64,000 nucleotides of DNA from Gammaproteobacteria bacterium (GTDB lineage: Bacteria > Pseudomonadota > Gammaproteobacteria > UBA4575), in assembly GCA_965221955.1 (NCBI GenBank), contig CBDCTA010000029.1, positions 288,001-352,000 on the forward strand, written 5' to 3'. The translations under genes and the position numbers were made by a program. Numbering within the stretch: position 1 is the stretch's first letter; each line of letters opens with the position of its first letter. Positions 13,514-53,513 of the stretch are shown one piece after another. The notes below the pieces were generated by a model. It did no database searches, was not told the DNA's origin, and saw nothing but the letters and a program-made list of their open reading frames with translations.

Positions 13514-13846
13514 CTATACGCAGCCTGTTGGTTTTGGTAACCCTGCATACTTACAAGCTTGCTTTGCTGGTCCATAAGGAAACAACTCATACAAATATTT
13601 ACTGTTACCTTTGTCTTTACCAAGCTTTTTGCCAATTGCTTTTGTAAGCACGCGTACCGCTGGTGCAATTTGATACTCTTCATAGTATTCGCGAAGGAAA
13701 TTAATCACTTCCCAATGGTTATCGCTTAATTCAGCACCGTCTGCTGCAGCCATTGCTTCAGCTAGGTCAGGTTGCCAATCATTAAGGTTCGCTAAGTAAC
13801 CTTCTTCATCAGTTTCAAAAGACTGACCGTTTACTTCTAAAGGCAT
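13514..13846 (-). CDS. dsrC: DsrC sulfur carrier
   Basis: C-terminus KQACKYAGLPKPTGCV with both conserved Cys. Confidence 0.98.
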   Translation of the reverse strand: MPLEVNGQSFETDEEGYLANLNDWQPDLAEAMAAADGAELSDNHWEVINFLREYYEEYQIAPAVRVLTKAIGKKLGKDKGNSKYLYELFPYGPAKQACKYAGLPKPTGCV

Positions 13847-13883
13847 ATGACTCTCCTATTTACCTTACAAATAATAAAAATTA

Positions 13884-14192
13884 TTAAAGCCAAGACTGAA
13901 CAGTTTCATGTTCGGTCGTTAAATCTACAAAGCCGTCATAATCAATGACTTTAATACCATTGATTACATTGCCATCATTCAGGCCACGGGCTTTGATATC
14001 GGGGCCTAAGACATAAAAATTGATATCACTCATTGCACTAGCAACAGTGTCGGAATGTTTGGTGTTTTGCATTGCACCGATAACACCGTCTTCAAAAAGG
14101 AGTACAGAGCTGCCTTTAGAAGCTAGACGCAAGCAAGATTCTAAAGAGTTACGTTCAAATGGGGATTTATTGACTATATGTAAAGATGACAT
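13884..14192 (-). CDS. dsrH: DsrH (TusB family)
   Basis: LHIVNKSPF, LLFEDGV, ARG, YDGFVDLT..QSW. Confidence 0.96.
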   Translation of the reverse strand: MSSLHIVNKSPFERNSLESCLRLASKGSSVLLFEDGVIGAMQNTKHSDTVASAMSDINFYVLGPDIKARGLNDGNVINGIKVIDYDGFVDLTTEHETVQSWL

Positions 14193-14203
14193 TTTTGATT
14201 CCT

Positions 14204-14620
14204 TTAAAAACTCAATACAACATCTTGTTCGTCGATGATTTTTGAAAGTTCATCACGATCCACAACAAACAATGAATCCTTTTCAGCCCAGTCATCATCT
14301 TCGTCTTCATATTTTAAAGCTTGAAGATCATCAGTAGTTAAGCCGCGCTCTTCTAAAGATTCTTTCTCTACGTAAACTTTCTTAATATCGTAATCACCAA
14401 GAGCAGTATAGGTTTTAGAGAAATTCTTCATACCAATTGCATCGGTGTCTTGGTTTTTTGTTAGTTGGTATACACCATCGTCTGCAAATACTAAGCTGAT
14501 GTCTTGATCAAATGCTGCGGCAATGAGTACCACTTCTAAAGATTCTAGTGCGTAGATTGTGCCGTAAGGAGCCTTACGGTTCATATAACAAAACTTTTTG
14601 ACGATGCCTTCTTCTGACAT
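14204..14620 (-). CDS. dsrF: DsrF (TusC family)
   Basis: RKAPYGTIYALESLE, FADDGVYQL. Confidence 0.96.
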   Translation of the reverse strand: MSEEGIVKKFCYMNRKAPYGTIYALESLEVVLIAAAFDQDISLVFADDGVYQLTKNQDTDAIGMKNFSKTYTALGDYDIKKVYVEKESLEERGLTTDDLQALKYEDEDDDWAEKDSLFVVDRDELSKIIDEQDVVLSF

Positions 14621-14622
14621 TC

Positions 14623-15015
14623 TTAATCTCCAAAAGTGACTAGGCGATCCGCTTGGATGCCAGCTTCAATAAGTTGTCCTAAACCAGAAATCCGAAAGCC
14701 TTTGGTTAGGTTATTTGAGGTTTTACCATTACGCTTACTTTCGTCTTCATCCAACATGCCACGACGTTGTGCTGCAGCTACACAAACCACTAAGTCCAAG
14801 TCATGTTTTTCAGCTAGATCTGACCATTCTTTTGGAAGGTTGCGATCATCTTGAGGGGGTACCCCTAAGTCTGTGCCATTATTCACACCATCGTGATAGA
14901 AAAACACGCGAAATATTTCGTGGCCTTTCGCAAGTGCCGATTTTGTAAATTGCAGTGCCGAATCAGATGCTTGATGCGTATACGGTCCTTCGTTAATTAC
15001 GATTCCAAATTTCAC
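14623..15015 (-). CDS. dsrE: DsrE (TusD family), GTG start
   Basis: FFYHDGV, active-site VCVAAAQRRG, ISGLGQL. Confidence 0.96.
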   Translation of the reverse strand: MKFGIVINEGPYTHQASDSALQFTKSALAKGHEIFRVFFYHDGVNNGTDLGVPPQDDRNLPKEWSDLAEKHDLDLVVCVAAAQRRGMLDEDESKRNGKTSNNLTKGFRISGLGQLIEAGIQADRLVTFGD

Positions 15016-15032
15016 ATGAACTCCTAATCAAG

Positions 15033-16106
15033 TTAGAAGCGAATGTGGGTCGAAGCATTTAAGCTGCGACGTGCACCACGCCAGTTATCAATATGGAATT
15101 TAGTGAAAGGCAGTCCTGTTACTTCAAAGAAACGTGGCCAACCAATGCGCTCTACCCAATCATTAATACGCTCCCAATCTTTTGCGTCATCGCGATACGC
15201 ACGCAGGATGCGTTTAACAATGGCAGTTGCTTCAGGCCAACGTGGAGGATTATTTGGAATACCGGCAGCAACTAATTTTTGGAAAGTTGGTTTGCCGCGT
15301 GCATTGGAGTGATTACCACCTACCCAAACTGCAAGTTTTGTATGTTCAGCATCGTTAATTTGCATTGGTGGGCATGGTGGGAAACATGCACCACAGCAGA
15401 TGCATTTTTTCTCATCCACTTCTAGCGAAGGTTTGCCATTTACCATTGCTGGGCGAATCGCTGCAACAGGGCAACGTGCTACAACTGATGGTCGCTCACA
15501 AACATTGGATACTAAGTCGTGGTTAATCTTTGGTGGTTTAGTGTGTTGCACATTAATTGCAATATCACCTTGACCACCACAGTTAATTTGGCAACAAGAA
15601 GTCGTAATGTGTACACGGTTAGGCATGTTATTTTCTTTGAACTCATCTATAAGTTCATCCATCATTGCCTTAACAACACCCGATGCATCGGTACCAGGAA
15701 TATCACAGTGCAACCAACCTTGAGTATGCGAAATCATTGCCACTGAGTTTTTAGTTCCGCCTACCACAAAACCTTCAGACTCAAGTTTGTCAATTAGAGG
15801 TTGTACTTTAGCTTCATCCGCAACCATGTATTCAATGTTGCTACGAATGGTGAAGCGCACATAGCCATCTGCAAACTCATCACCAATGTCACATAAAGTG
15901 CGTAAGGTAAACACATCAAGAATACGTTGCGTACCTGCACGTACAGTCCAAATTTTATCGCCGTTATCGGCAACGTGTAGCAATACACCTGGGCGTGGGT
16001 GTTCGTGATAATCCCACATACCATAATTTTTTCGCATCAAAGGATGCATGTATTGAAATCCGTCTGGGCATCCTGATTCAATTGGTGGACGATGCTCTTG
16101 CGCCAT
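15033..16106 (-). CDS. dsrB: Reverse dissimilatory sulfite reductase beta subunit
   Basis: HTQGWLHC, SCCQINCG, CICCGAC, NNPPRWP, ERIGW. Confidence 0.98.
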   Translation of the reverse strand: MAQEHRPPIESGCPDGFQYMHPLMRKNYGMWDYHEHPRPGVLLHVADNGDKIWTVRAGTQRILDVFTLRTLCDIGDEFADGYVRFTIRSNIEYMVADEAKVQPLIDKLESEGFVVGGTKNSVAMISHTQGWLHCDIPGTDASGVVKAMMDELIDEFKENNMPNRVHITTSCCQINCGGQGDIAINVQHTKPPKINHDLVSNVCERPSVVARCPVAAIRPAMVNGKPSLEVDEKKCICCGACFPPCPPMQINDAEHTKLAVWVGGNHSNARGKPTFQKLVAAGIPNNPPRWPEATAIVKRILRAYRDDAKDWERINDWVERIGWPRFFEVTGLPFTKFHIDNWRGARRSLNASTHIRF

Positions 16107-16178
16107 TTATGTTCTCCTACGCTTAATTCTTATTTACTTTGAAGTTTTTACTTTGAAGTTAGATTTTGGTGTTTTTGA

Positions 16179-17438
16179 TTAACCAGCAGCAGCTTGTTCT
16201 GCTTTTTTCTGGAACCATTGCTCTGCTTCTTCATCCCAACCATCCATACGAACGTAAGAACTTTGTCGAGGTTCGTTGACCATATTTGGATCAACATCTA
16301 CATCAACACCTTCTAGGAAGTTGACTAAACCAATACGTTCAATCATTTCACCGCAGCGCTCATGTTCTAGACCGTTTTCTGCCCAGAAGTCGATGGTTTC
16401 TTCTGCAAGCTCTACAATCTTTTCATAGTCTTCTTCGGTTTCTAGTTTCATGAATGGAATTACAACCGTTCCCATCAAGTCACCAATTTTAAGGGTACGT
16501 TTACCACCCATAAGAATTGATACACCTTTGTCATCACCAGGAGACAATGCTTTCACCATAACGTTTAAGCAGTGCATGCAACGAACGCAATCTTTATTGT
16601 TTACATCTAAGGTGTCGTCATCTTTTAACGCTAATGCTTTCGTTGGGCAACGTGTAATTACATTATCAATTACATATTGACGACCTTTGCGCTCAACGAA
16701 TTTTTTCACTTCTTCTTGGTCAACTTTCATGTCATCACGCCAAGTACCAATAATGGCAAAGTCGGCACGTTCAATTGCGTTCATGCAATCATTCGGGCAA
16801 CCAGAAACTTTGAATTTAAATTTGTAAGGTAAGGCGGGGCGGTGAACATCATCAGTGAAGTTATTGAGAAGTGTGCGATGAATTTTCATTTCATCTGCAT
16901 TAGACATTTCACAGCGTGCAGCACCTACACAAGACATTCCTGTACGTACGCATGGTCCTGCACCCCCAAGATCCCATCCGTATTCGTTAATTTCGTCGAA
17001 AAAGTGTTGTGTGTTTTCTGTTGTCGCACCGATGAACATAATGTTACCGGTTTGACCGTGGAAAGTGACTAGGCCTGAACCATGTTTTTCCCAGCTATCG
17101 CCAAGTTGACGTAGCATATCTGTCGAGTAGTAATTGCCTGCAGGCGGTTGTACGCGCAGCGTGTGAAATTCTTTTGATTCTGGAAATGCTGCACCGACTT
17201 CTGAAAAGCGAGGAATGATTCCACTACCGTATCCAAATACAGAAACGGTTCCACCTTTCCAATACCCTTTGCGCGTCTCGTATGAATGTTCGAGCTGACC
17301 TAACAAAGAATTGGCTACACCTTGAATTCTTTCGTCAGGATGCTGGTCGCGCAGACGTTTAAAACCAGAAATGAAACTTGGCCATGGGCCTTTCTCTAGC
17401 TCATCAAGCATGGGGGTAGGATGATGCTTATCAGCCAT
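16179..17438 (-). CDS. dsrA: Reverse dissimilatory sulfite reductase alpha subunit
   Basis: GPWPSF, WKGG, CVGAARC, YKFKFKVSGCPNDC, CVRCMHC. Confidence 0.98.
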   Translation of the reverse strand: MADKHHPTPMLDELEKGPWPSFISGFKRLRDQHPDERIQGVANSLLGQLEHSYETRKGYWKGGTVSVFGYGSGIIPRFSEVGAAFPESKEFHTLRVQPPAGNYYSTDMLRQLGDSWEKHGSGLVTFHGQTGNIMFIGATTENTQHFFDEINEYGWDLGGAGPCVRTGMSCVGAARCEMSNADEMKIHRTLLNNFTDDVHRPALPYKFKFKVSGCPNDCMNAIERADFAIIGTWRDDMKVDQEEVKKFVERKGRQYVIDNVITRCPTKALALKDDDTLDVNNKDCVRCMHCLNVMVKALSPGDDKGVSILMGGKRTLKIGDLMGTVVIPFMKLETEEDYEKIVELAEETIDFWAENGLEHERCGEMIERIGLVNFLEGVDVDVDPNMVNEPRQSSYVRMDGWDEEAEQWFQKKAEQAAAG

Positions 17439-17769
17439 AGTGGAATCTCCTAAAAATTGTTGTCAAAAAGTCGTTAATTTTGGAATTTGCTGAGCAAATC
17501 TAGGTCGACAGAAAACATATTCCGTTACATTCCAGAACCTAATAGAAAAGTCCTAAAAACATAATGTTAGAAGTGTAGAAGTAGGGCTAAAAAGGCTAAA
17601 TCCCTACCATTGGGTGCCGGCTTAAATACAACTTATCCCAATAGAGATACGATTTATTACAGTCATGAGATAAGTAATTTTAAGGGGTTTGCGAGTAGTC
17701 TAGATCCATGTTCATAACCAACAATAGAACCATGTGTTTACACCATTTTGCTGATATAGCTCATAAGAA

Positions 17770-18660
17770 ATGCAGCCCTATCCCATAAAAGAAAAGCATG
17801 CCTATGAGGCGTGGCGTGAGCAAAAATTAAATAATTATCCAAAGCAGGTGGATGAGTTAATTATTGAGCTAAATAACCCTATAAAATTAATGGATACTGA
17901 GATAAATGCATTAAAATCTATTTGTGCAAAATCCAATTTGGTCATCTACAAATGCATAACAGATGACGATCCAAAGCAAACTGTAATGTCTCTAGCTCAA
18001 CAATTAGGTTTGCAACAACTCGATGCAAACATTTGTGCGGACGAAGACCGCATTTCTGCTATACAAGTTTCTGATGAAAGCAATGCTTATTACATCCCTT
18101 ATACCAACAAGGCACTAAATTGGCATACCGATGGTTATTACAATTTACCTCAACAGCGCATACATGCTTTTTTAATGCATTGTGTGCGACCTGCAGGTTG
18201 TGGGGGTGAAAATACATATTTAGATCCTGAAATTGCATATATTTTATTACGAGATGAAAACTCAGAATATATTGCTGCACTGATGGATGAACAAGTGATG
18301 ACGATTCCGGCAAATGAACAAGATAAAAAAAATATTCGCCCTGAACAAAGTGGGCCAGTGTTTTACTTCGATGCGATGAATAATTTATGTATGCGTTACA
18401 CCGCGCGCAAACGCAATGTTGTTTGGAAGCAGGAAAAAAATGTGCAAAACGCTTTAGCTTGTTTGCAAGAGATTCTGCAGAACAATCCGTATTTGTTTCG
18501 TTATCGACTCAACGCAAAAGAAGGTGTGGTGTGTAATAACGTTTTACATTGTCGCACAGCATTTGAAGATGATGACCAAAGTAAACGTTTGCTGTATCGA
18601 GGGCGTTTTTATAATCGTGTTACGAATGGTGATGCGCTGCAAAAAGTGGTGAATCAATAA
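17770..18660 (+). CDS. TauD/TfdA-family 2-oxoglutarate/Fe(II) dioxygenase
   Basis: WHTDGYY (HxD) and NNVLHCR facial triad, RLLYR motif. Confidence 0.85.
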   Translation: MQPYPIKEKHAYEAWREQKLNNYPKQVDELIIELNNPIKLMDTEINALKSICAKSNLVIYKCITDDDPKQTVMSLAQQLGLQQLDANICADEDRISAIQVSDESNAYYIPYTNKALNWHTDGYYNLPQQRIHAFLMHCVRPAGCGGENTYLDPEIAYILLRDENSEYIAALMDEQVMTIPANEQDKKNIRPEQSGPVFYFDAMNNLCMRYTARKRNVVWKQEKNVQNALACLQEILQNNPYLFRYRLNAKEGVVCNNVLHCRTAFEDDDQSKRLLYRGRFYNRVTNGDALQKVVNQ

Positions 18661-18857
18661 TGTTGTGGTTGAGTGAACTTCTCATGCAGCATCATGAGCT
18701 GAAGTCTTTTGAAGAATTAAAAGAAAAACTTTCTGAGCAAGTTTCACAAGGTGAAATGTTTTTTCGCATGGATGTGCGACCACCCTTTCAAGATACCCCA
18801 GAAAATTGGGAAGATATTTTAGAAGCTGTGTTTACTTCTGCAAATAAGGCTGAGTAA
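18660..18857 (+). CDS. Small acidic hypothetical protein in the dsr-divergent operon
   Basis: Start overlaps the upstream stop (TAATG); DVRPPFQDTPENWED motif. Confidence 0.75.
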   Translation: MLWLSELLMQHHELKSFEELKEKLSEQVSQGEMFFRMDVRPPFQDTPENWEDILEAVFTSANKAE

Positions 18858-18863
18858 TTAAAA

Positions 18864-19553
18864 ATGTATTGGCAAGATCAAGAGGAAAAGAAGCAACAAT
18901 ATGTTGTTCCCGATGACGTTGTTGATTTGTCATTTAAAGTTCAGTGTAAGCAGCTTCCCTTGGATCACGCCTATGAATTATCACAAGCGATTCAACAAGT
19001 ATTGCCTTGGATGAAAGATGAAGCCCACGCTGGGATCCATTTAATACATGGTGCGGAGTCTGGAAACGGTTGGATGCGCCCTGAAGAACCGGATGCCATT
19101 TTAAGTTTGTCACGACGAACACGGTTCATGTTACGTATCCCAAAACATCGTATCGATGAGGCAATTAAACTTGTCGATCAAACCTTAAATGTAGCAGGTA
19201 ATGAGTTAACCTTGAGTACGCCTAACCAAAAATCACTTTCTGCATTAACCACTATATTTGCAAGATATGTCGTCACAGATGATGTTGAAGATGAAGAAGT
19301 ATTTTTAAATCAAACTGCAGAATTATTAAAAGAACAGGGCATAAAAGTTAAGAAAATGATGAGTGGTCGTGCGCATCTGTTACGTATGCCTGATGACGAT
19401 TTATTCACTCGTAGTCTGATGATTGATGGCTTAGAAGTGGAAGAATCTGTTTACTTGCAGCAACATGGGCTAGGCGCAGGCCGATTGTTTGGTTGTGGAT
19501 TGTTTCTACCTCATAAGGGGATAGATGCCGTGGGCGAAGCTCAGCAAAAATAG
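18864..19553 (+). CDS. cas6: Orphan Cas6-family (type I-MYXAN Cas6/Cmx6-like) RAMP endoribonuclease
   Basis: N-terminal VDLSF...LPLDHAYEL, IHGAESGNGW, and the C-terminal G-rich loop QQHGLGAGRLFGCGLF (GhGxxxxxGhG) diagnostic of Cas6. Confidence 0.85.
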   Translation: MYWQDQEEKKQQYVVPDDVVDLSFKVQCKQLPLDHAYELSQAIQQVLPWMKDEAHAGIHLIHGAESGNGWMRPEEPDAILSLSRRTRFMLRIPKHRIDEAIKLVDQTLNVAGNELTLSTPNQKSLSALTTIFARYVVTDDVEDEEVFLNQTAELLKEQGIKVKKMMSGRAHLLRMPDDDLFTRSLMIDGLEVEESVYLQQHGLGAGRLFGCGLFLPHKGIDAVGEAQQK

Positions 19554-19667
19554 TTTTTTAGTGTTAGCAGATGAAAAATCTCCCTTTATGGGAATAAAAA
19601 TACTGTTTAGATTGAAATAACTTAAATGTTCGAACTATCGATATTTTTCAAAAACTAGGAGTGATAT

Positions 19668-19997
19668 ATGAGCTTGAGTGATATCGAAACTACACCGTCT
19701 GGGTTTTTAGTAAACATTGAAGATTGGAATGAAGATCTTGCCAATGAAATTGCCAAGGACGAAGGTGTGGAGCTGACTGAAAAGCATTGGGATGTAATCA
19801 ACTACCTGCGTGATGAATTTATTAATAATGCAGGCAATCAACCTAATACCCGCAACATGACTAAGGCTATGGCCAAAGCCTGGGGTGAGAAGAAAATTGA
19901 TGCCAAAGTTTTGTATGACCTTTTTCCTGGTGATCCAAGTAAGCAAGCAGGACGTATAGGTGGTTTACCAGAGAGCCGACGTAAAGGTGGTTATTAA
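19668..19997 (+). CDS. DsrC/TusE-family paralogue lacking both C-terminal cysteines (RspA type)
   Basis: DsrC-fold motifs (GFL..EDW, LTEKHWDVINYLR, LYDLFP), but ends KQAGRIGGLPESRRKGGY; no Cys in the protein. Confidence 0.88.
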   Translation: MSLSDIETTPSGFLVNIEDWNEDLANEIAKDEGVELTEKHWDVINYLRDEFINNAGNQPNTRNMTKAMAKAWGEKKIDAKVLYDLFPGDPSKQAGRIGGLPESRRKGGY

Positions 19998-20091
19998 TCT
20001 ATTTGCACACAATGGGCACCCAAAAGGGTATACAGACTGTTTTGCCTAAATCATTAAATTAATAATTACATTTGATTGAAAAGGATTCACT

Positions 20092-20295
20092 ATGAGTTCC
20101 AAGCAAGAAAAAATTGCAAGAATGCTTGAGATGCAAAAAAAGTTTATTGAACTTGAGCAAAGTGGGCAAGTAACTGCAGAAAGTTATTTTGTACCAGAGC
20201 CTGGTTCTGATCTTGATGGTTATAGAGAAGAATATATGAAACTTGCCATGGAAGTAGTTGATGAAGCACACGAAGATAAAGGCTCACATCGATAA
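20092..20295 (+). CDS. Small hypothetical protein in the dsr-divergent unit
   Basis: AAGGA RBS; helical acidic protein; ends just before a bidirectional terminator. Confidence 0.7.
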   Translation: MSSKQEKIARMLEMQKKFIELEQSGQVTAESYFVPEPGSDLDGYREEYMKLAMEVVDEAHEDKGSHR

Positions 20296-20315: not shown

Positions 20316-20343
20316 AAAAAAGGCCGCTATAGCGGCCTTTTTT
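20316..20343. terminator. Bidirectional intrinsic terminator
   Basis: Perfect palindrome AAAAAAGGCCGCTATAGCGGCCTTTTTT between convergent genes. Confidence 0.85.
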
Positions 20344-20355
20344 ATTGCATCTAAT

Positions 20356-21027
20356 TTAAACTTCGCTCCACATACGTACCAAATTCACATACGTGTTATC
20401 AATTCGTTTTGTGTCTTCTGATTGAGGGTCTTTGCGTAGCATTTTTTCACGCGTTTTACTAAGTTGATAGAGTAAATCACGTTGTTCGTTACTACGGACT
20501 AAACTTTGAATCCAAGTAACCGCGACGAAACGCTCACCTTTGGTTACTTTGTTGACGCGGTGCCTTGTAGTAGCAGGGTATAGCACTGCATCACCTGCGT
20601 TGAATTTTATACTTTGTTCTCCGTAAGGTGTTTGTATAACAAGTTCTCCGCCATTATATTGGTCTGGTGAATTTAAAAAAATGGTCATTGCAAGATCAGA
20701 ACGGTATCGCTCATTCATCGCACCCATAACAGGGTCGTCAATATGTTCACCATATTCCATTCCAGTTTCATAACGCGCATAAAAAGGTGCAGCAATACGA
20801 TGGGGTAAAGCCGCTTGTTGATAATCTGGGTGTCGAACAACATTATTCATTACAATGCTATTTAGTGATGAAATAATATTTTCATCAGCCACTTCTTGAT
20901 TATTTTTAACCTGCTGAGCAGCCAAACCCGCAGAGAGCTTTCCTTCTCTAAATTTTGCATTTTTTAAAATTGCTTGAACATTTGATAATTCAGCATCACC
21001 AAGAATATGTTTAATATGCACTAACAT
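20356..21027 (-). CDS. PKHD-type Fe(II)/2OG hydroxylase (YbiX/PiuC family)
   Basis: G..SAG..A..VKNNQE, YGEHIDD, RSDLAMTIFL..P..Y.GGEL, HRV..VT.G.R, NLVRMWSE. Confidence 0.9.
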   Translation of the reverse strand: MLVHIKHILGDAELSNVQAILKNAKFREGKLSAGLAAQQVKNNQEVADENIISSLNSIVMNNVVRHPDYQQAALPHRIAAPFYARYETGMEYGEHIDDPVMGAMNERYRSDLAMTIFLNSPDQYNGGELVIQTPYGEQSIKFNAGDAVLYPATTRHRVNKVTKGERFVAVTWIQSLVRSNEQRDLLYQLSKTREKMLRKDPQSEDTKRIDNTYVNLVRMWSEV

Positions 21028-21085: not shown

Positions 21086-21409
21086 ATGATACTTAAAGTT
21101 ACGATAGATGAAAAAACATTTCCTCTAGAATTAGATGCAGATATGATTTCTAGTGGACAAGAAATGTTTGCAAAAATGGATGCTGACATGGATCAAGGTT
21201 GGCAAATGAGTCGCACCTGGGTAGAGGCACCGAATGATGCTCAGCGCTGTCAAATTGCAGCAGATAAGATGTTAACTGCCATTCAACAAGAGAAAACTGC
21301 GACAGTTGGACTGATGGCGGCGTATATCTTAAATAAATTACCTGGTATTCAGGCAGTGGATATTGATACCTCTGGGGATATGAACCTTACAGAATTGATA
21401 ATGAGCTAA
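21086..21409 (+). CDS. Hypothetical protein
   Basis: Clean ORF with FAKMDADMDQGWQMSRTWV..RCQIAADK motif. Confidence 0.7.
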   Translation: MILKVTIDEKTFPLELDADMISSGQEMFAKMDADMDQGWQMSRTWVEAPNDAQRCQIAADKMLTAIQQEKTATVGLMAAYILNKLPGIQAVDIDTSGDMNLTELIMS

Positions 21410-21419
21410 AGACAATGGG

Positions 21420-21851
21420 CTAGAAATGTTTTGCCATTCTTAAATGTTTAATTTCTAAATCAGAATCTGCTTCACCTTCAATTTTGTAATTATTTTTTAA
21501 ATAAAAATCTACTGCGGTTTCTCTAGCAAGTAACCAGCATATTTTTGTGTTTTCTTTTTTGGCAATGGTTTCCAATTGTGCGAGCAGCTTGCTACCAATA
21601 CCTTGTCTTCTAAATGAATCTTCTACGGCCATGTAGCGAATCCGTGCAGTAAAATCTTTTTCGATTTGCAGGCGACCTACGGCAATAATTTTTTCACCAT
21701 TAAGCGCTGCAACATGAAAAGCAGTGCTTTCTAGTTCATCTTGTTCACTGCCGCGTTCAAGACCTAAGGGTTTTCGTAGTTGTTCCCAGCGAAATTTAAA
21801 GTATTCCTTAAACTCTTTTTCGGTTTGTGGTGCGCGGTAAGAAATGGTCAT
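21420..21851 (-). CDS. GNAT-family N-acetyltransferase
   Basis: IRYMAV..FRRQGIG acetyl-CoA motif; AR..AV.FY. Confidence 0.9.
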   Translation of the reverse strand: MTISYRAPQTEKEFKEYFKFRWEQLRKPLGLERGSEQDELESTAFHVAALNGEKIIAVGRLQIEKDFTARIRYMAVEDSFRRQGIGSKLLAQLETIAKKENTKICWLLARETAVDFYLKNNYKIEGEADSDLEIKHLRMAKHF

Positions 21852-21893: not shown

Positions 21894-22487
21894 TTAGGCA
21901 AATACAACCCAAGTAGTTGCAATATACTTCACACCTTCTTCAAGCGTTACACCGCGATGTTCATGTGTCCAAAAGGGAGGAAATAGAATTAATTTTCCAA
22001 GTTCAGGTTTAATTTTTATGTCTTGAAATAAAAACTCTGTTTCGCCGCCAGGACCTTGAACGTTATTCAAATACCAAATTGCGACAAGTTGGCGATGGCT
22101 AAAATCATGACTGCCACCATCAATATGCCAGTGATAGTGCTCACCTGGATTCGTGCGTTGCACGCCATAACCCATGTCTTTGAATGGTCCTTTAAAAAAA
22201 GGGTAGCTTTCCCGAAATTCTAAAATAGCTCGGCCTAAAGACTGGAATAATTCTTTATCCACATCTTTCCAATGCGCTTTGCCACTGACTACAAGGTCGG
22301 TAGATTTTTTTATGCTGTCATCTTCATTGGCCAGTTGGCCTATACGACCTTTGTATTGTCCTTCTTTATCTTGTTCGAATCGAGTAATTACACTTTCACA
22401 AAATTCTTTATCAAGTGCATTTTGTTTTTCAAATACAAAACTATTCGCTTTGACCTCTTGGATGGTCTGTAAGGGTTTGTTTGGCAT
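21894..22487 (-). CDS. 2OG-Fe(II) oxygenase (prolyl-hydroxylase-like)
   Basis: YHWHID, IWYLN, GGETEF, FPPFWTHEHRG, KY. Confidence 0.88.
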   Translation of the reverse strand: MPNKPLQTIQEVKANSFVFEKQNALDKEFCESVITRFEQDKEGQYKGRIGQLANEDDSIKKSTDLVVSGKAHWKDVDKELFQSLGRAILEFRESYPFFKGPFKDMGYGVQRTNPGEHYHWHIDGGSHDFSHRQLVAIWYLNNVQGPGGETEFLFQDIKIKPELGKLILFPPFWTHEHRGVTLEEGVKYIATTWVVFA

Positions 22488-22489
22488 GC

Positions 22490-23533
22490 TTATAATGTAT
22501 TTTTTTGAACAAGATGTTCGAGTTTTTCTAAATCAAGCTCTTTATTAGTTTGATAATACGCTAACATTTCTTTCGCAAGCCTTGACCAGTGTTGTACCCC
22601 TTGAGCGACTAATGCTTTCATGGGTTTAATATCATCCATATCTACCCATGCTTGATAAGCTTCTTGAAAGCTGGGAAACAATTCTTTTCGCATCGCAACG
22701 AGGTTTGCTGAGTAGAAATGCAATGATGCTGGATTATAGTTTTCAATTAAGCCGGGCAGTGTAGATAGACAATCTGCTAGTAAATCTTTCACCGCTCTTG
22801 CCATAAATTCTGCGCGAGAGCGCGGTAAGTTCACAATCATTTCGCGCCAATCATTTCCTAATTCTTTTGTGGCAATGAATTCACCAATCTCATGCAGGGT
22901 AACGGCTTCGAGTTCGTTATCTGTCATTTGATCAAGCGCTTGATCGACGTCATTCTCAAAATCATAAAATGATAATGCTCGTGACATGGCGTTTTCATAT
23001 CTGTGCCATTGCCATTCGGTAAACTTTTCCCAAAGATAACGACGTAAGGCTTCGCGGCGAATAAAAACGTTTTTACCTTGTGTCATGGCAGGGGGTGCGG
23101 TTAAGTCGCGTGCACATTCATCTGCAGACACATACATAGTGAAGTCGCTATACACTTCTTTTTCTTCTAATTTGGCTAAAAAAAAGTGCGGAGCAGAGCG
23201 AACGCCAATGCCGCCACTATAGACATAACCTTTAGGGGCTAAAACTTTATTGATATTTTCAGTATCAAACGGATCATACTCTTTGCCATCAATTTTTAGA
23301 GGTATAAACATTTTATCCTCTAACGTCTCCCATAAACTTTCACGTTCTTGTACCCAATTACCAACATCTTCTTTGGGTAAAACATCGTTATAAGAAAACC
23401 CATTTTCCCAGCGATAGTATTCACGCATTTTGAGCAAATACACACATAAGGTGTAATTCGCTGCGTGATGTGCATCAGAGATATCGCAGTTCTTTTGCAC
23501 GATCTCGCAAAGAGGGTGAGTCGTCTTTTGCAT
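22490..23533 (-). CDS. Sfum_1244-family protein
   Basis: VQKNCDISDA...YTLCVYLLKMREYYRWE N-terminus; LHEIGE motif; family recalled from sulfur-metabolism loci. Confidence 0.7.
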   Translation of the reverse strand: MQKTTHPLCEIVQKNCDISDAHHAANYTLCVYLLKMREYYRWENGFSYNDVLPKEDVGNWVQERESLWETLEDKMFIPLKIDGKEYDPFDTENINKVLAPKGYVYSGGIGVRSAPHFFLAKLEEKEVYSDFTMYVSADECARDLTAPPAMTQGKNVFIRREALRRYLWEKFTEWQWHRYENAMSRALSFYDFENDVDQALDQMTDNELEAVTLHEIGEFIATKELGNDWREMIVNLPRSRAEFMARAVKDLLADCLSTLPGLIENYNPASLHFYSANLVAMRKELFPSFQEAYQAWVDMDDIKPMKALVAQGVQHWSRLAKEMLAYYQTNKELDLEKLEHLVQKNTL

Positions 23534-26444: not shown

Positions 26445-27344
26445 ATGAGTTACACACTGCGTCAAATTCAGATCTTTCGTCATGTAGGTAAACAGCTAAG
26501 TTTTACTAAAGCAGCTGAAGAGCTTTTTTTATCTCAACCTGCTGTATCAGGACAAATTAAACAATTAGAAAAGGAAGTAGGCCTTCCTTTGTATGAGCAA
26601 CTGGGGAGGAAGATATTTTTAACTGAAGCTGGGAAGCAAATGTATGAGTTTTCTACTGAAATACAATCTTTATTGAAAGAATTTGATAAAAAAATAAATG
26701 ATCTAAAAGGAGTTGAAGGAGGGTTGTTAAAAATTTCGATTGCTTCTACTGTAAATTATTTTGCAGCACAACTTTTATCAGAGTTTTGTAAATATCATAC
26801 AGAAGTTCACATACATCTAGATGTTACAAATCGTGCTACTTTGCTTTCACAGCTAGAAAACAATGAAACAGATTTAGTATTAATGGGTTCAGTGCCAGAT
26901 GATTTAGATGTGGTAGTGGAACCGTTTATGGATAATCCTTTAGTAATTATTGCGCCGCCTAATCACCCGTTTGTGGGTGAGGAAGAAATTCCTTTACGGA
27001 ACTTAAAGAATGACAAGTTGCTTATGAGGGAGGTTGGTTCAGGTACAAGATTGGCAATGGAGCAATTTTTTCTTGAAAAGAAAAATTTTAAGTTAATTAG
27101 TACAATTGAAATGAATAGCAATGAAGCGATTAAAAAAAGTGTTGAGGCTGGTTTAGGTTTAGGAATTGTTTCGGAGCATACGATCAAACTAGAAAAAGAA
27201 GCAGGGAAGCTTAAGGTGCTGAATGTAAGGCGCTTCCCAATCATGAGAAAGTGGAATATCGTTCATCGAAAAGGTAAGCGCCTTTCGGTTTCAGCTGAAT
27301 TATTTAAAAATTATATTTTAGATAAGAGTGCTAAGTATGTTTGA
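26445..27344 (+). CDS. LysR-family regulator (CbbR/CmpR-like)
   Basis: TLRQ..SFTKAAEEL.LSQPAVS.QIKQLE HTH; REVGSGTR and SNEAIK motifs. Confidence 0.9.
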   Translation: MSYTLRQIQIFRHVGKQLSFTKAAEELFLSQPAVSGQIKQLEKEVGLPLYEQLGRKIFLTEAGKQMYEFSTEIQSLLKEFDKKINDLKGVEGGLLKISIASTVNYFAAQLLSEFCKYHTEVHIHLDVTNRATLLSQLENNETDLVLMGSVPDDLDVVVEPFMDNPLVIIAPPNHPFVGEEEIPLRNLKNDKLLMREVGSGTRLAMEQFFLEKKNFKLISTIEMNSNEAIKKSVEAGLGLGIVSEHTIKLEKEAGKLKVLNVRRFPIMRKWNIVHRKGKRLSVSAELFKNYILDKSAKYV

Positions 27345-41059: not shown

Positions 41060-41095
41060 ACTCTTATGATCTGATATAATCCAATCTTACAACCT

Positions 41096-41278
41096 CACTA
41101 AAGGTGTCCTTGCTCACTTTGTGCCAAGGATGAAACAGGGAAGTCTGTGAAAGACAGACGCTGCCCCCGCAACGGTGATTGGGTTTCAGTAGTTCGAAAA
41201 CCACTGTGTTCTAAGAACATGGGAAGGTGAACCACTAAGTCTTTGACTGCTCATCAGCCCGGAGACCGGCCTTATGTG
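41096..41278 (+). ncRNA. Cobalamin (B12) riboswitch
   Basis: AAACAGGGAAGTCTGTGAAA..CTGCCCCCGCAACGGT..CCACTG..GGGAAGG..AGCCCGGAGACCGGCC B12 box; TATAAT at 41075; upstream of btuB. Confidence 0.93.
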
Positions 41279-41379
41279 AATCAGGAAACTGCGGCGGGCG
41301 GTTCTAGCTGAAGTCTTATCACAAGCTTGCTTGTGCACTTAGCTGTGTGTCCGTTACGTAAATTTATATAGGATACATC

Positions 41380-52988: not shown

Positions 52989-53513
52989 TTACTTCTCGCC
53001 GCATTTTCCTTCGCCGCACTTGCCTTCACCACAAGAGCCTTCTGCTTTGTTTTTGCTTTCACCGCATTTACCTTCGCCACATTTTCCTTCTTTGTGCTTC
53101 TTCATTTCATCTTTACTTAAAACACCGTCGTTATTGGCGTCTTTTTTATCAAAGCGTTGTTCTTTATGCTTCATGAACTCGTCTTTGCTGATCGATCCGT
53201 CGCCATCTGCATCCATCTTGCTCATATCACATTTACTTTTACCTTCGCCGCATTTTCCTTCACCGCACTTACCTTCGGCTTTCTTTTCGCCTTCACCGCA
53301 TTTACCTTCACCACATTTTCCTTCACCGCACTTGCCTTCACCACAAGAGCCTTCGGCATGGTTATCTGCAACCATGTAGCCAGATGATAAGGTTTTGATT
53401 TCAAAAGGATTCTCTTCAGCATTTGCAGCTGTCATAGTGAATGCGCTGGCAGCGAGTGCCGCACCGACTGCAGCAGCTAAAGGTTTAAGTTCATTTTTTT
53501 TCGACATATACAA
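52989..53513 (-). CDS. HvfA/oxazolin-type RiPP precursor with 11 EG[KS]CG repeats and two EF-hand motifs
   Basis: Sec signal, NPF...L.SGY motif, EGKCG repeats, DADGDGSISKDEF and DANNDGVLSKDEM. Confidence 0.88.
   Translation of the reverse strand: MYMSKKNELKPLAAAVGAALAASAFTMTAANAEENPFEIKTLSSGYMVADNHAEGSCGEGKCGEGKCGEGKCGEGEKKAEGKCGEGKCGEGKSKCDMSKMDADGDGSISKDEFMKHKEQRFDKKDANNDGVLSKDEMKKHKEGKCGEGKCGESKNKAEGSCGEGKCGEGKCGEK

Follow-up and report, generated by a model that had tools for sequence, protein, structure and literature searches.

The window, as the whole stretch of DNA that was analysed is called here, comprises 64,000 nucleotides from a gammaproteobacterium of the lineage UBA4575 (GenBank assembly GCA_965221955.1, contig CBDCTA010000029.1, positions 288,001 to 352,000 of the forward strand), the genome of which amounts to 2.69 Mb in 29 contigs and is 96.64% complete. 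At 18864-19553, in a unit of five genes divergent from the dsr operon, lies an open reading frame (ORF) whose product is a member of a Cas6/Cmx6 clade independent of CRISPR, and the link of this clade to dsr is general across the sampled members of the class. The features that matter most are the following.

13514-16106, minus strand: dsrB, dsrE, dsrF, dsrH and the true dsrC (C-terminus GLPKPTGCV), as ORFs, syntenic in related loci
16179-17438, minus strand: dsrA, first gene of the divergent dsr operon (TIGR02064, 631.8 bits)
17439-17769, unstranded: control region of 331 nt between dsrA and the TauD-like gene, from the ORF coordinates
17770-18660, plus strand: TauD/TfdA-family Fe(II)/2-oxoglutarate dioxygenase-like protein, 296 aa (PF02668, 68.8 bits, cut-off 27)
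18660-18857, plus strand: s65, acidic 65-aa protein, no match to family models
18864-19553, plus strand: dsr-type Cas6/Cmx6 paralogue, 229 aa (PF09559, 207 bits; TIGR02807, 143.9 bits)
19668-19997, plus strand: cysteine-less DsrC/TusE-family paralogue (PF04358, 115.2 bits)
20092-20295, plus strand: s67, 67-aa protein, no match to family models
20316-20343, unstranded: A run, GC hairpin and T run between the convergent s67 and YbiX-like genes, as read in the sequence

The TauD-like and s65 genes overlap by 1 nt, 6 nt separate s65 from the Cas6-like gene, 114 nt lie between the latter and the DsrC-like gene and 94 nt between that and s67; it is plausible that the five plus-strand genes form a single operon. 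The element that follows them is probably a bidirectional terminator, its hairpin (GGCCGC-TATA-GCGGCC with a T run, 20322-20343) being situated 3' of s67 and absent from the output of a consensus terminator scan. In the TauD-like translation WHTDG and a later LHCR can be read by eye, candidates for the His-x-Asp...His iron triad of the family. Much of this had been described in an earlier note made by a model from the sequence alone, and its five ORFs, the 1-nt overlap, the 6-nt gap and the 331-nt divergent region were all found where it had put them; so were LPLDHAY and GLGAGRLFGCGLF in the Cas6-like translation, the lack of cysteine in the DsrC-like protein and, after the 67-aa ORF, a terminator with a readable hairpin and T run.

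A Cas6 relative in a genome without CRISPR-Cas

By the curated models there is little ambiguity about family membership. The Cas6-like ORF scores 207 bits against PF09559, for which the cut-off is 26.7, and 143.9 bits against TIGR02807, for which it is 98.85; the Cas6 models of PADLOC give 202 bits, and NCBI and JGI annotation names these proteins CRISPR-associated Cas6/Cmx6. The PF09559 gene is single-copy in the window's genome. Of the company that such a name leads one to expect, nothing was encountered. Cas1 was not found in the 96.64%-complete genome, tblastn of the Cas3, Cas8b, putative Cas7 and WYL proteins of a real type I-B locus gave no match to it, and a k-mer scan revealed no CRISPR-like array in either the window or the genome. 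Three weak k-mer matches in the genome proved on inspection to be low-complexity coding repeats, and two weak repeat matches in the loci fetched from other genomes to be coding or plain tandem repeats, with no CRISPR array among them. As a control, the same kind of scan recovered the 18-copy array of a CRISPR locus, L092. The earlier note had called the window free of CRISPR and mobile-element genes, and had singled out an array and type I effector genes elsewhere in the genome as what would tell against independence from CRISPR; the CRISPR part stands and now extends to the genome, and the mobile-element part stands for the window as regards Phage_integrase, rve and DDE_Tnp_1, the only mobile-element families searched. 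If 'CRISPR-associated' is given its functional meaning, namely an array, cas1/cas2 and effectors in the same genome, then it does not describe the gene at 18864-19553, and the dsr-linked Cas6 is a member of the sequence family that falls outside the functional definition.

Linkage to dsr across genomes

An even draw of 401 genomes of the class was searched for PF09559, Cas1 and DsrA and the results cross-tabulated. The tallies include the unpublished genomes G308, G039 and G141, and the example of PF09559 beside Cas1 in G308 comes from that one genome. Related genomes are not independent, for which reason counts are given and no P values; the carriers come from about 100 family-level groups. 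PF09559 was present in 125 of the 401 genomes and DsrA in 127, with 120 having both, 5 PF09559 only, 7 DsrA only and 269 neither. Three of the genomes with DsrA only are 55-81% complete and another, G293, is 99% complete; among those with PF09559 only, the copies in G021 and G308 are CRISPR-linked. At the level of individual matches, 90 of 128 were 677-4511 bp from dsrA, all 90 divergent from it, and most of the others were on short contigs. A second sample, of 391 genomes from the phylum, had matches in 5, all in the same class, and is uninformative on Alphaproteobacteria or Chlorobia; it added three further carriers, in which the gene is 435-615 nt from dsrA and again divergent. A scan of genome contigs with a single protein yielded 7 loci only. 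The carriers include SUP05/Thioglobus and uncultured marine Gammaproteobacteria.

Cas1 was found in 64 of the 125 genomes with PF09559, leaving 61 without it, and only one of 91 fetched loci has cas genes and an array. That one, L092, belongs to a genome that lacks dsrA and represents a genuine type I-B locus, with array, WYL, Cas6, Cas3 and Cas8b; the other 90 have neither an array nor cas genes besides the Cas6-like one. Pairwise distances of DsrA and Cas6 are correlated (Spearman r 0.40, a value reached by none of 500 permutations), which is consistent with inheritance together, Cas6 being the faster-evolving of the two with a mean pairwise identity of 43% versus 74% for DsrA. The earlier note had it that type I-MYXAN Cas6 homologues recur next to dsr genes in sulfur oxidisers. 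This was right (120 of the 125 carriers have DsrA, and 90 of the 128 matches are divergent neighbours of dsrA), and the wider proposal of a 'domesticated', CRISPR-independent and dsr-linked Cas6 is well supported by the conserved linkage, the lack of CRISPR-Cas in the genome and the fold now to be considered.

A separate clade with the Cas6 fold

The AlphaFold2 model of the Cas6-like protein (pLDDT 89.4, pTM 0.85) has the two-domain ferredoxin-like fold of Cas6, that is of a repeat-associated mysterious protein (RAMP), in agreement with what the earlier note had expected. It is least confident in a dsr-specific loop, residues 53-80, and an acidic N-terminal tail is disordered. Its best match in the PDB is 8fcj_B, the Cas6 of a type I-B CRISPR-associated transposon (CAST), with an E value of 3e-16 and TM scores of 0.75 and 0.79, and phmmer also finds this chain (E 2e-11). 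There are 46 fold matches at E <= 0.001, and among the matches listed all are Cas6/Cse3 or Cascade chains. ESM Atlas matches were confined to Cas6-named clusters, from Pseudomonadota. Homology to the Cas6/Cmx6 (Cas6b) of type I-B 'Myxan' and I-B CAST systems (PF09559, TIGR02807, 8fcj_B, locus L092) is thus evident from sequence and from predicted fold (TM 0.75-0.79).

The relationship is nonetheless one between distinct branches. In a tree, 91 dsr-type sequences stand apart from 61 CRISPR-type ones with support of 1.0 and a branch length of 1.12. Of the checks for which the earlier note had called, the profile search thus gave a score above cut-off and the phylogeny put the dsr-linked proteins in a clade of their own. 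One genome, G307, has both a dsr-type gene beside dsrA and a second PF09559 gene about 7 kb from Cas1 (contigs C149, C112, C93), and therefore the two types coexist as paralogues. Common to both clades are D21, D34-H35, R91 and the G-rich loop GxG...GCGxF. H35, the histidine of the loop joining strand 1 to helix 1, is retained in 99% of the dsr type (n=91), G202, G204, G210 and G212 in 97-99% and C211 in 87%; in alignment A1 H35, G202, G210 and G212 are invariant. Compared with CRISPR Cas6/Cmx6, which is linked to cas3/cas8b where the dsr type is linked to dsrAB, the dsr-type proteins are some 30 residues longer (an N-terminal tail with Trp3, an insertion at 70-79 and a C-terminal tail) and have lost eight basic positions, with a pI of 6 versus 9.5. 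The tail is acidic and its W3 invariant; the insertion is of 10 residues (GW.RP). Residues gained by the dsr type are W49, H59, H62, N68, R85, R134, E144, K164, T182, R183, H217 and K218, and its new invariant aromatic or basic residues are W3, W49, W70, R72, R85, R134, K164, R183 and K218. As for abundance, a search with the dsr-type protein gave 2532 relatives and one with a CRISPR-linked sister 223.

The company the gene keeps

For 91 of the 128 PF09559 matches synteny was examined in the flanking 7 kb to either side, with the proteins of the window mapped onto the loci; partial matches, short contigs with little flank and G308 were left out, which may inflate the neighbour frequencies. Within this set dsrA is divergent in 69 loci, a TauD-like gene on the same strand is 5' of the Cas6-like gene in 63, s65 is 5' of it in 72, the Cys-less DsrC-like gene is directly downstream in 67 and s67 is downstream in 40. 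Of the 91 loci 7 share none of the neighbours named in this section, one being L092 and the other six having housekeeping neighbours and no cas genes. The Cas6-like gene would appear to be co-regulated with dsr and to be part of a multi-protein accessory module for sulfur oxidation. In the Thioglobus-like lineage (L006, L007, L127 and L129) it is away from dsrA and divergent beside rnc-era, in four of four loci, which represents one event; in these loci a conserved 294-aa gene was taken as era, and a thioredoxin-like gene is on the other side of the Cas6-like gene.

The small partners of the Cas6-like gene are all acidic. Neither s65 nor s67 has a match in Pfam, NCBIfam or PADLOC; s65 has a median pI of 4.5 and a conserved motif, FFRMDVKPPF..DTP..WE. 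Between s65 and the Cas6-like gene 37 of the 91 loci have a gene for a protein of about 225 aa, p225 (e.g. L062:6274-6945), likewise lacking a family match in Pfam, NCBIfam or PADLOC, and the window's genome has its copy about 100 kb away, at C29:203473-204192. The model of p225 (pLDDT 94.7) is an all-helical repeat with weak TPR-like look-alikes in the PDB, none at E <= 0.001. A possible binding site for p225 is the N-terminal tail of the Cas6-like protein, with its Trp and acidic residues.

Beyond the terminator are several genes that are often co-located with the unit.

20356-21027, minus strand: YbiX-like Fe(II) dioxygenase
21086-21409, plus strand: 107-aa protein
21420-21851, minus strand: GNAT protein
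21894-22487, minus strand: 2-oxoglutarate (2OG)-Fe(II) oxygenase (2OG-FeII_Oxy_3)
22490-23533, minus strand: DUF6866/Sfum_1244-family protein

Within 7.2 kb downstream of the Cas6-like gene the YbiX-like gene occurs in 42 of the 91 loci, the 107-aa gene in 26, the 2OG oxygenase gene in 26 and the DUF6866/Sfum_1244 gene in 29. An identification of the protein p347 as DsrS was dropped, since NCBIfam names it 'Sfum_1244 family'. With the TauD-like, YbiX-like and 2OG-FeII_Oxy_3 proteins, three oxygenases are encoded beside an operon that also occurs in anaerobes.

A DsrC paralogue without cysteine

The product of 19668-19997 matches PF04358 and TIGR03342 over its full length (115.2 and 100.8 bits) and is below the TusE equivalog cut-off (85.9 versus 191). 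In DsrC the penultimate arm cysteine is strictly conserved, as stated in the portion of PMC3397948 that was available, and a 'RspA' group within the DsrC/TusE/RspA family is named in the corresponding portion of PMC8477390. The arm core of this family, FP..P.KQ...GLP, is common to the paralogue and true DsrC. What distinguishes the paralogue is the absence of both arm cysteines by which a DsrC is recognised, and an ending in RKGGY instead of PTGCV: cysteine is absent in 62 of 67 orthologues, their arm is GLPE[ST][RK]RKGGY where that of true DsrC is GLPKPTGCV, and K106, G107, G108 and Y109 are invariant in 35 DsrC-like sequences. So invariant an arm, and so consistent a lack of cysteine, mark the paralogue as a conserved subfamily rather than a DsrC in decay. 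Four genomes without the paralogue beside the Cas6-like gene have a stand-alone copy elsewhere; in G080, which is 99% complete and keeps both the Cas6-like gene and a perfect copy of the palindrome described below, the RKGGY paralogue was not found. The window's genome has at least six DsrC/TusE-family loci. Two of its family matches have identical scores and lengths (C29:136453-136776 and C10:1896-2219) and may reflect a duplicated or doubly assembled segment.

That the Cas6-like protein might work together with the Cys-less DsrC was part of the earlier proposal. Prediction of the pair as a complex gave a score of 0.40, the best of 3 controls reaching 0.02, with contacts agreeing by at least 64% across runs and a partner pLDDT of at least 83. 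Of 80 solved complexes 58 passed the mark applied, as did 2 of 110 mismatched pairs, rough counts as they derive from our own alignments; at a score of 0.60 or under it was passed by 7 of the 80 complexes and by both of the passing mismatches. The predicted complex, and with it the idea of joint action, has to that extent weak support.

The control region and its palindrome

Two elements within the region between dsrA and the TauD-like gene deserve separate entries.

17572-17705, unstranded: non-coding block of about 130 nt containing the palindrome, with 5 full-length matches and a 60-nt core in L061
17634-17649, unstranded: copy of the palindrome TATCCC-N4-GGGATA with one mismatch, inside the conserved 130-nt block

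When perfect 6-bp inverted repeats were listed in 84 loci and compared with shuffled sequence (maximum 8 loci), two recurred far above the shuffles, GGAAGT...ACTTCC and TATCCC-N4-GGGATA. The former, in 26 of the 84 loci, was rejected as an RNA element, 25 of the 26 being inside the dsrC coding sequence where they encode a conserved peptide. The latter, a palindrome of 16 bp, is found in many families between the divergent genes, at a distance of 110-343 nt 5' of the dsrA start. Counting was done on the 69 loci whose stretch includes dsrA: with at most two mismatches and no more than 450 nt upstream of dsrA the palindrome is present in 62 (21 perfect, 29 with one mismatch, 12 with two), and shuffled sequence yielded about 0.2 loci for one mismatch or fewer and 5.1 for two. 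The whole genome has 2 sites with at most one mismatch, the other copy being inside a long ORF. Judged by its sequence, this candidate is probably a DNA operator, at which a regulator devoted to dsr would bind. Neither the unit nor the flanks of the cluster encode a conventional transcription factor, and the closest such gene, of LysR type, is at 26445-27344.

The 331-nt region can be aligned over its full length in 5 family-level relatives, and the 130-nt block is about 90% conserved between relatives in which identity of the Cas6 proteins is no more than 69-80%; loci of other families gave no match to it. Its conservation might reflect the layout of promoters, or else a leader or small RNA peculiar to the lineage. 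As a general RNA partner of the Cas6-like protein it was set aside, being found in family-level relatives only, with an iterated nhmmer profile reaching 6 of 98 loci. The spacers around s67 gave weak matches only, in the closest relatives, and Rfam found in the window nothing except a cobalamin riboswitch far from the unit.

What the protein may do

How might a Cas6 earn its keep without repeats to cut? It is envisaged that the Cas6 cleft, with Asp34-His35 and the G-rich loop, would still be used, now lined by invariant Trp, His, Arg and Lys residues of the clade's own; that it would bind, and perhaps cut, a specific cellular RNA other than a CRISPR repeat; and that in this way, perhaps within a ribonucleoprotein that includes the partners, genes of sulfur oxidation would be controlled post-transcriptionally. 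Such an RNA-directed role with a new target is the most likely single mechanism, if one judged to fall a little short of an even chance, because the DH motif and G-rich loop are kept, new aromatic and basic residues have become invariant and RNase III is a neighbour in one lineage. Some evidence weighs against it. Eight positions that are basic in 82-100% of the CRISPR type (H51, R62, K106, R146, R170, K178, R206 and K208) are unconserved in the dsr type, the median pI of which is 6.0-6.1 with a net charge of -4 to -5, compared with 9.5 and +6; as far as pI and residues serve as a sequence-level proxy, the basic RNA-binding surface of the CRISPR-linked members is lacking. In 8fcj_B the position of His35 is occupied by Asn, and a catalytic role for His35 in the family is therefore an assumption. 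No conserved RNA hairpin was found in cis, the spacer between the Cas6-like and DsrC-like genes is unconserved even in the closest relative, and the partners of the Cas6-like gene resemble parts of a protein complex. The dsr link itself has exceptions in G293, which has DsrA and no PF09559 although it is 99% complete, and in the 100%-complete G167, where the whole unit is at a contig end (C40, locus L109) with no true DsrA anywhere in the genome. The earlier note had imagined cleavage or binding of dsr or accessory transcripts, and for that part of its proposal the lost basic surface, and the behaviour of the sole conserved non-coding motif as a DNA palindrome, are contrary evidence. Could the same palindrome, transcribed in a 5' leader, be a hairpin recognised by the Cas6-like protein? 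Its 6-bp stem and 4-nt loop are of the size and shape of typical Cas6 substrates, the loci yielded no other conserved non-coding motif, and in the genome it is confined to this region. This special case of RNA recognition is nevertheless improbable: 30 of 43 one-sided changes break the pairing, as neutral drift of two half-sites would, and a formal count over 58 loci having a spacer-4 site with at most two mismatches, plus the window, revealed neither excess pairing nor covariation (91.2% versus 90.5 +/- 0.4% with shuffled half-sites, 38 of 500 shuffles being as high), even though the choice of consensus-like sites favours pairing; the site may, besides, lie outside any transcript.

The alternative of a protein-level effector with no RNA involved is a serious one, to be entertained tentatively. 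Here the Cas6 fold would be a binding subunit, acting with the Cys-less DsrC, p225 and the small acidic proteins to modulate rDsrAB or the DsrEFH-DsrC relay, or binding a small anionic ligand, for which a nucleotide-sulfur compound would be one candidate. The loss of the basic surface with its eight conserved positions, the acidity of the small partners, the disordered acidic tail with its invariant Trp3, the invariant basic RKGGY arm, as if recognised by a partner, p225 as a confidently modelled helical repeat with weak resemblance to TPR-like adaptors, and the predicted complex with its weakly supportive score of 0.40 all sit well with it. There is also a precedent in DsrD, a small protein of the dsr clusters of sulfate reducers and an allosteric activator of DsrAB according to the accessible part of PMC8794893; also small and dsr-cluster-encoded, and described there as acting directly on DsrAB, DsrD is unrelated to the Cas6-like protein in fold and family and belongs to reducers where the latter belongs to oxidisers. 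Hard to reconcile with an old cleft gone unused are the near-invariant Asp34-His35 and G-rich loop; by the calibration of the tool most weak complex passes are false, except for pairs with good prior reason to interact; G080 does without the RKGGY paralogue; and no fused forms of the Cas6-like protein (402 aa or more) were found, which is weak evidence. A more elaborate version, a non-RNA exaptation, is on the unlikely side: a Cas6-fold core of a dsr protein complex, with the TPR-like scaffold on its Trp-acidic tail and the former cleft gripping either a nucleotide-sulfur ligand or a Cys-less DsrC decoy by its RKGGY arm, would tune rDsrAB, and the TauD-like enzyme might modify the arm. It is a long shot that a DNA-binding regulator of both divergent promoters, acting through TATCCC-N4-GGGATA, is to be seen instead in the Cas6-like protein, by itself or jointly with the DsrC paralogue. 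The layout, divergent from the target with a palindrome between, is classic, no conventional transcription factor is part of the conserved unit, and of the divergent neighbours of dsrA the Cas6-like gene persists best, remaining in place in loci that lack the TauD-like, s65 and DsrC-like genes; the DsrC of Allochromatium vinosum reportedly binds DNA upstream of dsrA. Against this are the acidic-to-neutral charge of the protein and the location of the gene far from dsrA in the Thioglobus-like lineage and five other loci, and we know of no Cas6 or RAMP protein that binds double-stranded DNA. Least credible by far is an ordinary CRISPR Cas6 serving an array elsewhere, or the decaying relic of a lost CRISPR-Cas system. 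Scores above the Cas6/Cmx6 curated cut-offs and the NCBI naming are what can be said for it, to be set against the lack of array, Cas1 and effectors in a genome 96.6% complete, the 61 of 125 carriers without Cas1, intact frames with 61-86% identity to the Cas6-like protein in 119 relatives among the matches listed, a separate clade with invariant residues of its own and dsr synteny across the sampled families. The RNA-directed role and the protein-level effector are compatible, as a ribonucleoprotein would fit both.

Other features of the window

The 72-nt spacer between dsrA and dsrB contains a perfect 14-nt tandem duplication, two copies, at 16133-16160. The cobalamin riboswitch (102 bits, 41085-41288) is 5' of a 635-aa ORF. 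Arrays of 15-nt and 30-nt tandem repeats at 52996-53354 are inside two overlapping ORFs, 52989-53513 on the minus strand and 53020-53379 on the plus strand, and probably encode a repetitive Cys/Gly-rich protein.

Implications

No paper linking Cas6 to dsr was found in a literature search whose coverage of subscription journals and supplementary gene tables was slight. PMC11406059 has no mention of CRISPR, Cas6 or TauD, and in PMC5944118, as far as its available part goes, Cas6 features only in a CRISPR context. The role of this Cas6 relative is probably in sulfur oxidation, and of a kind so far undescribed. For CRISPR biology it would be a Cas6 lineage living wholly outside CRISPR, and not a rare one, given the 2532 relatives against 223. 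Many database labels of the 'type I-MYXAN Cas6/Cmx6' kind may then be misnomers, and sulfur oxidisers may have been credited with too many 'orphan cas genes'.

For sulfur microbiology, a conserved and unstudied gene set, together with a probable operator, turns out to be attached to the best-known sulfur-oxidation operon, and among those that carry it are organisms of ecological importance, SUP05/Thioglobus and uncultured marine Gammaproteobacteria. The Cas6-like gene, the TauD-like gene, the genes for three family-less proteins and that for the RKGGY DsrC paralogue are targets for knock-out in oxidisers, with dsr expression and the control of DsrAB as the processes at issue. Should the non-RNA complex prove to be what nature has settled on, the Cas6-like protein would be the oxidisers' counterpart of DsrD.

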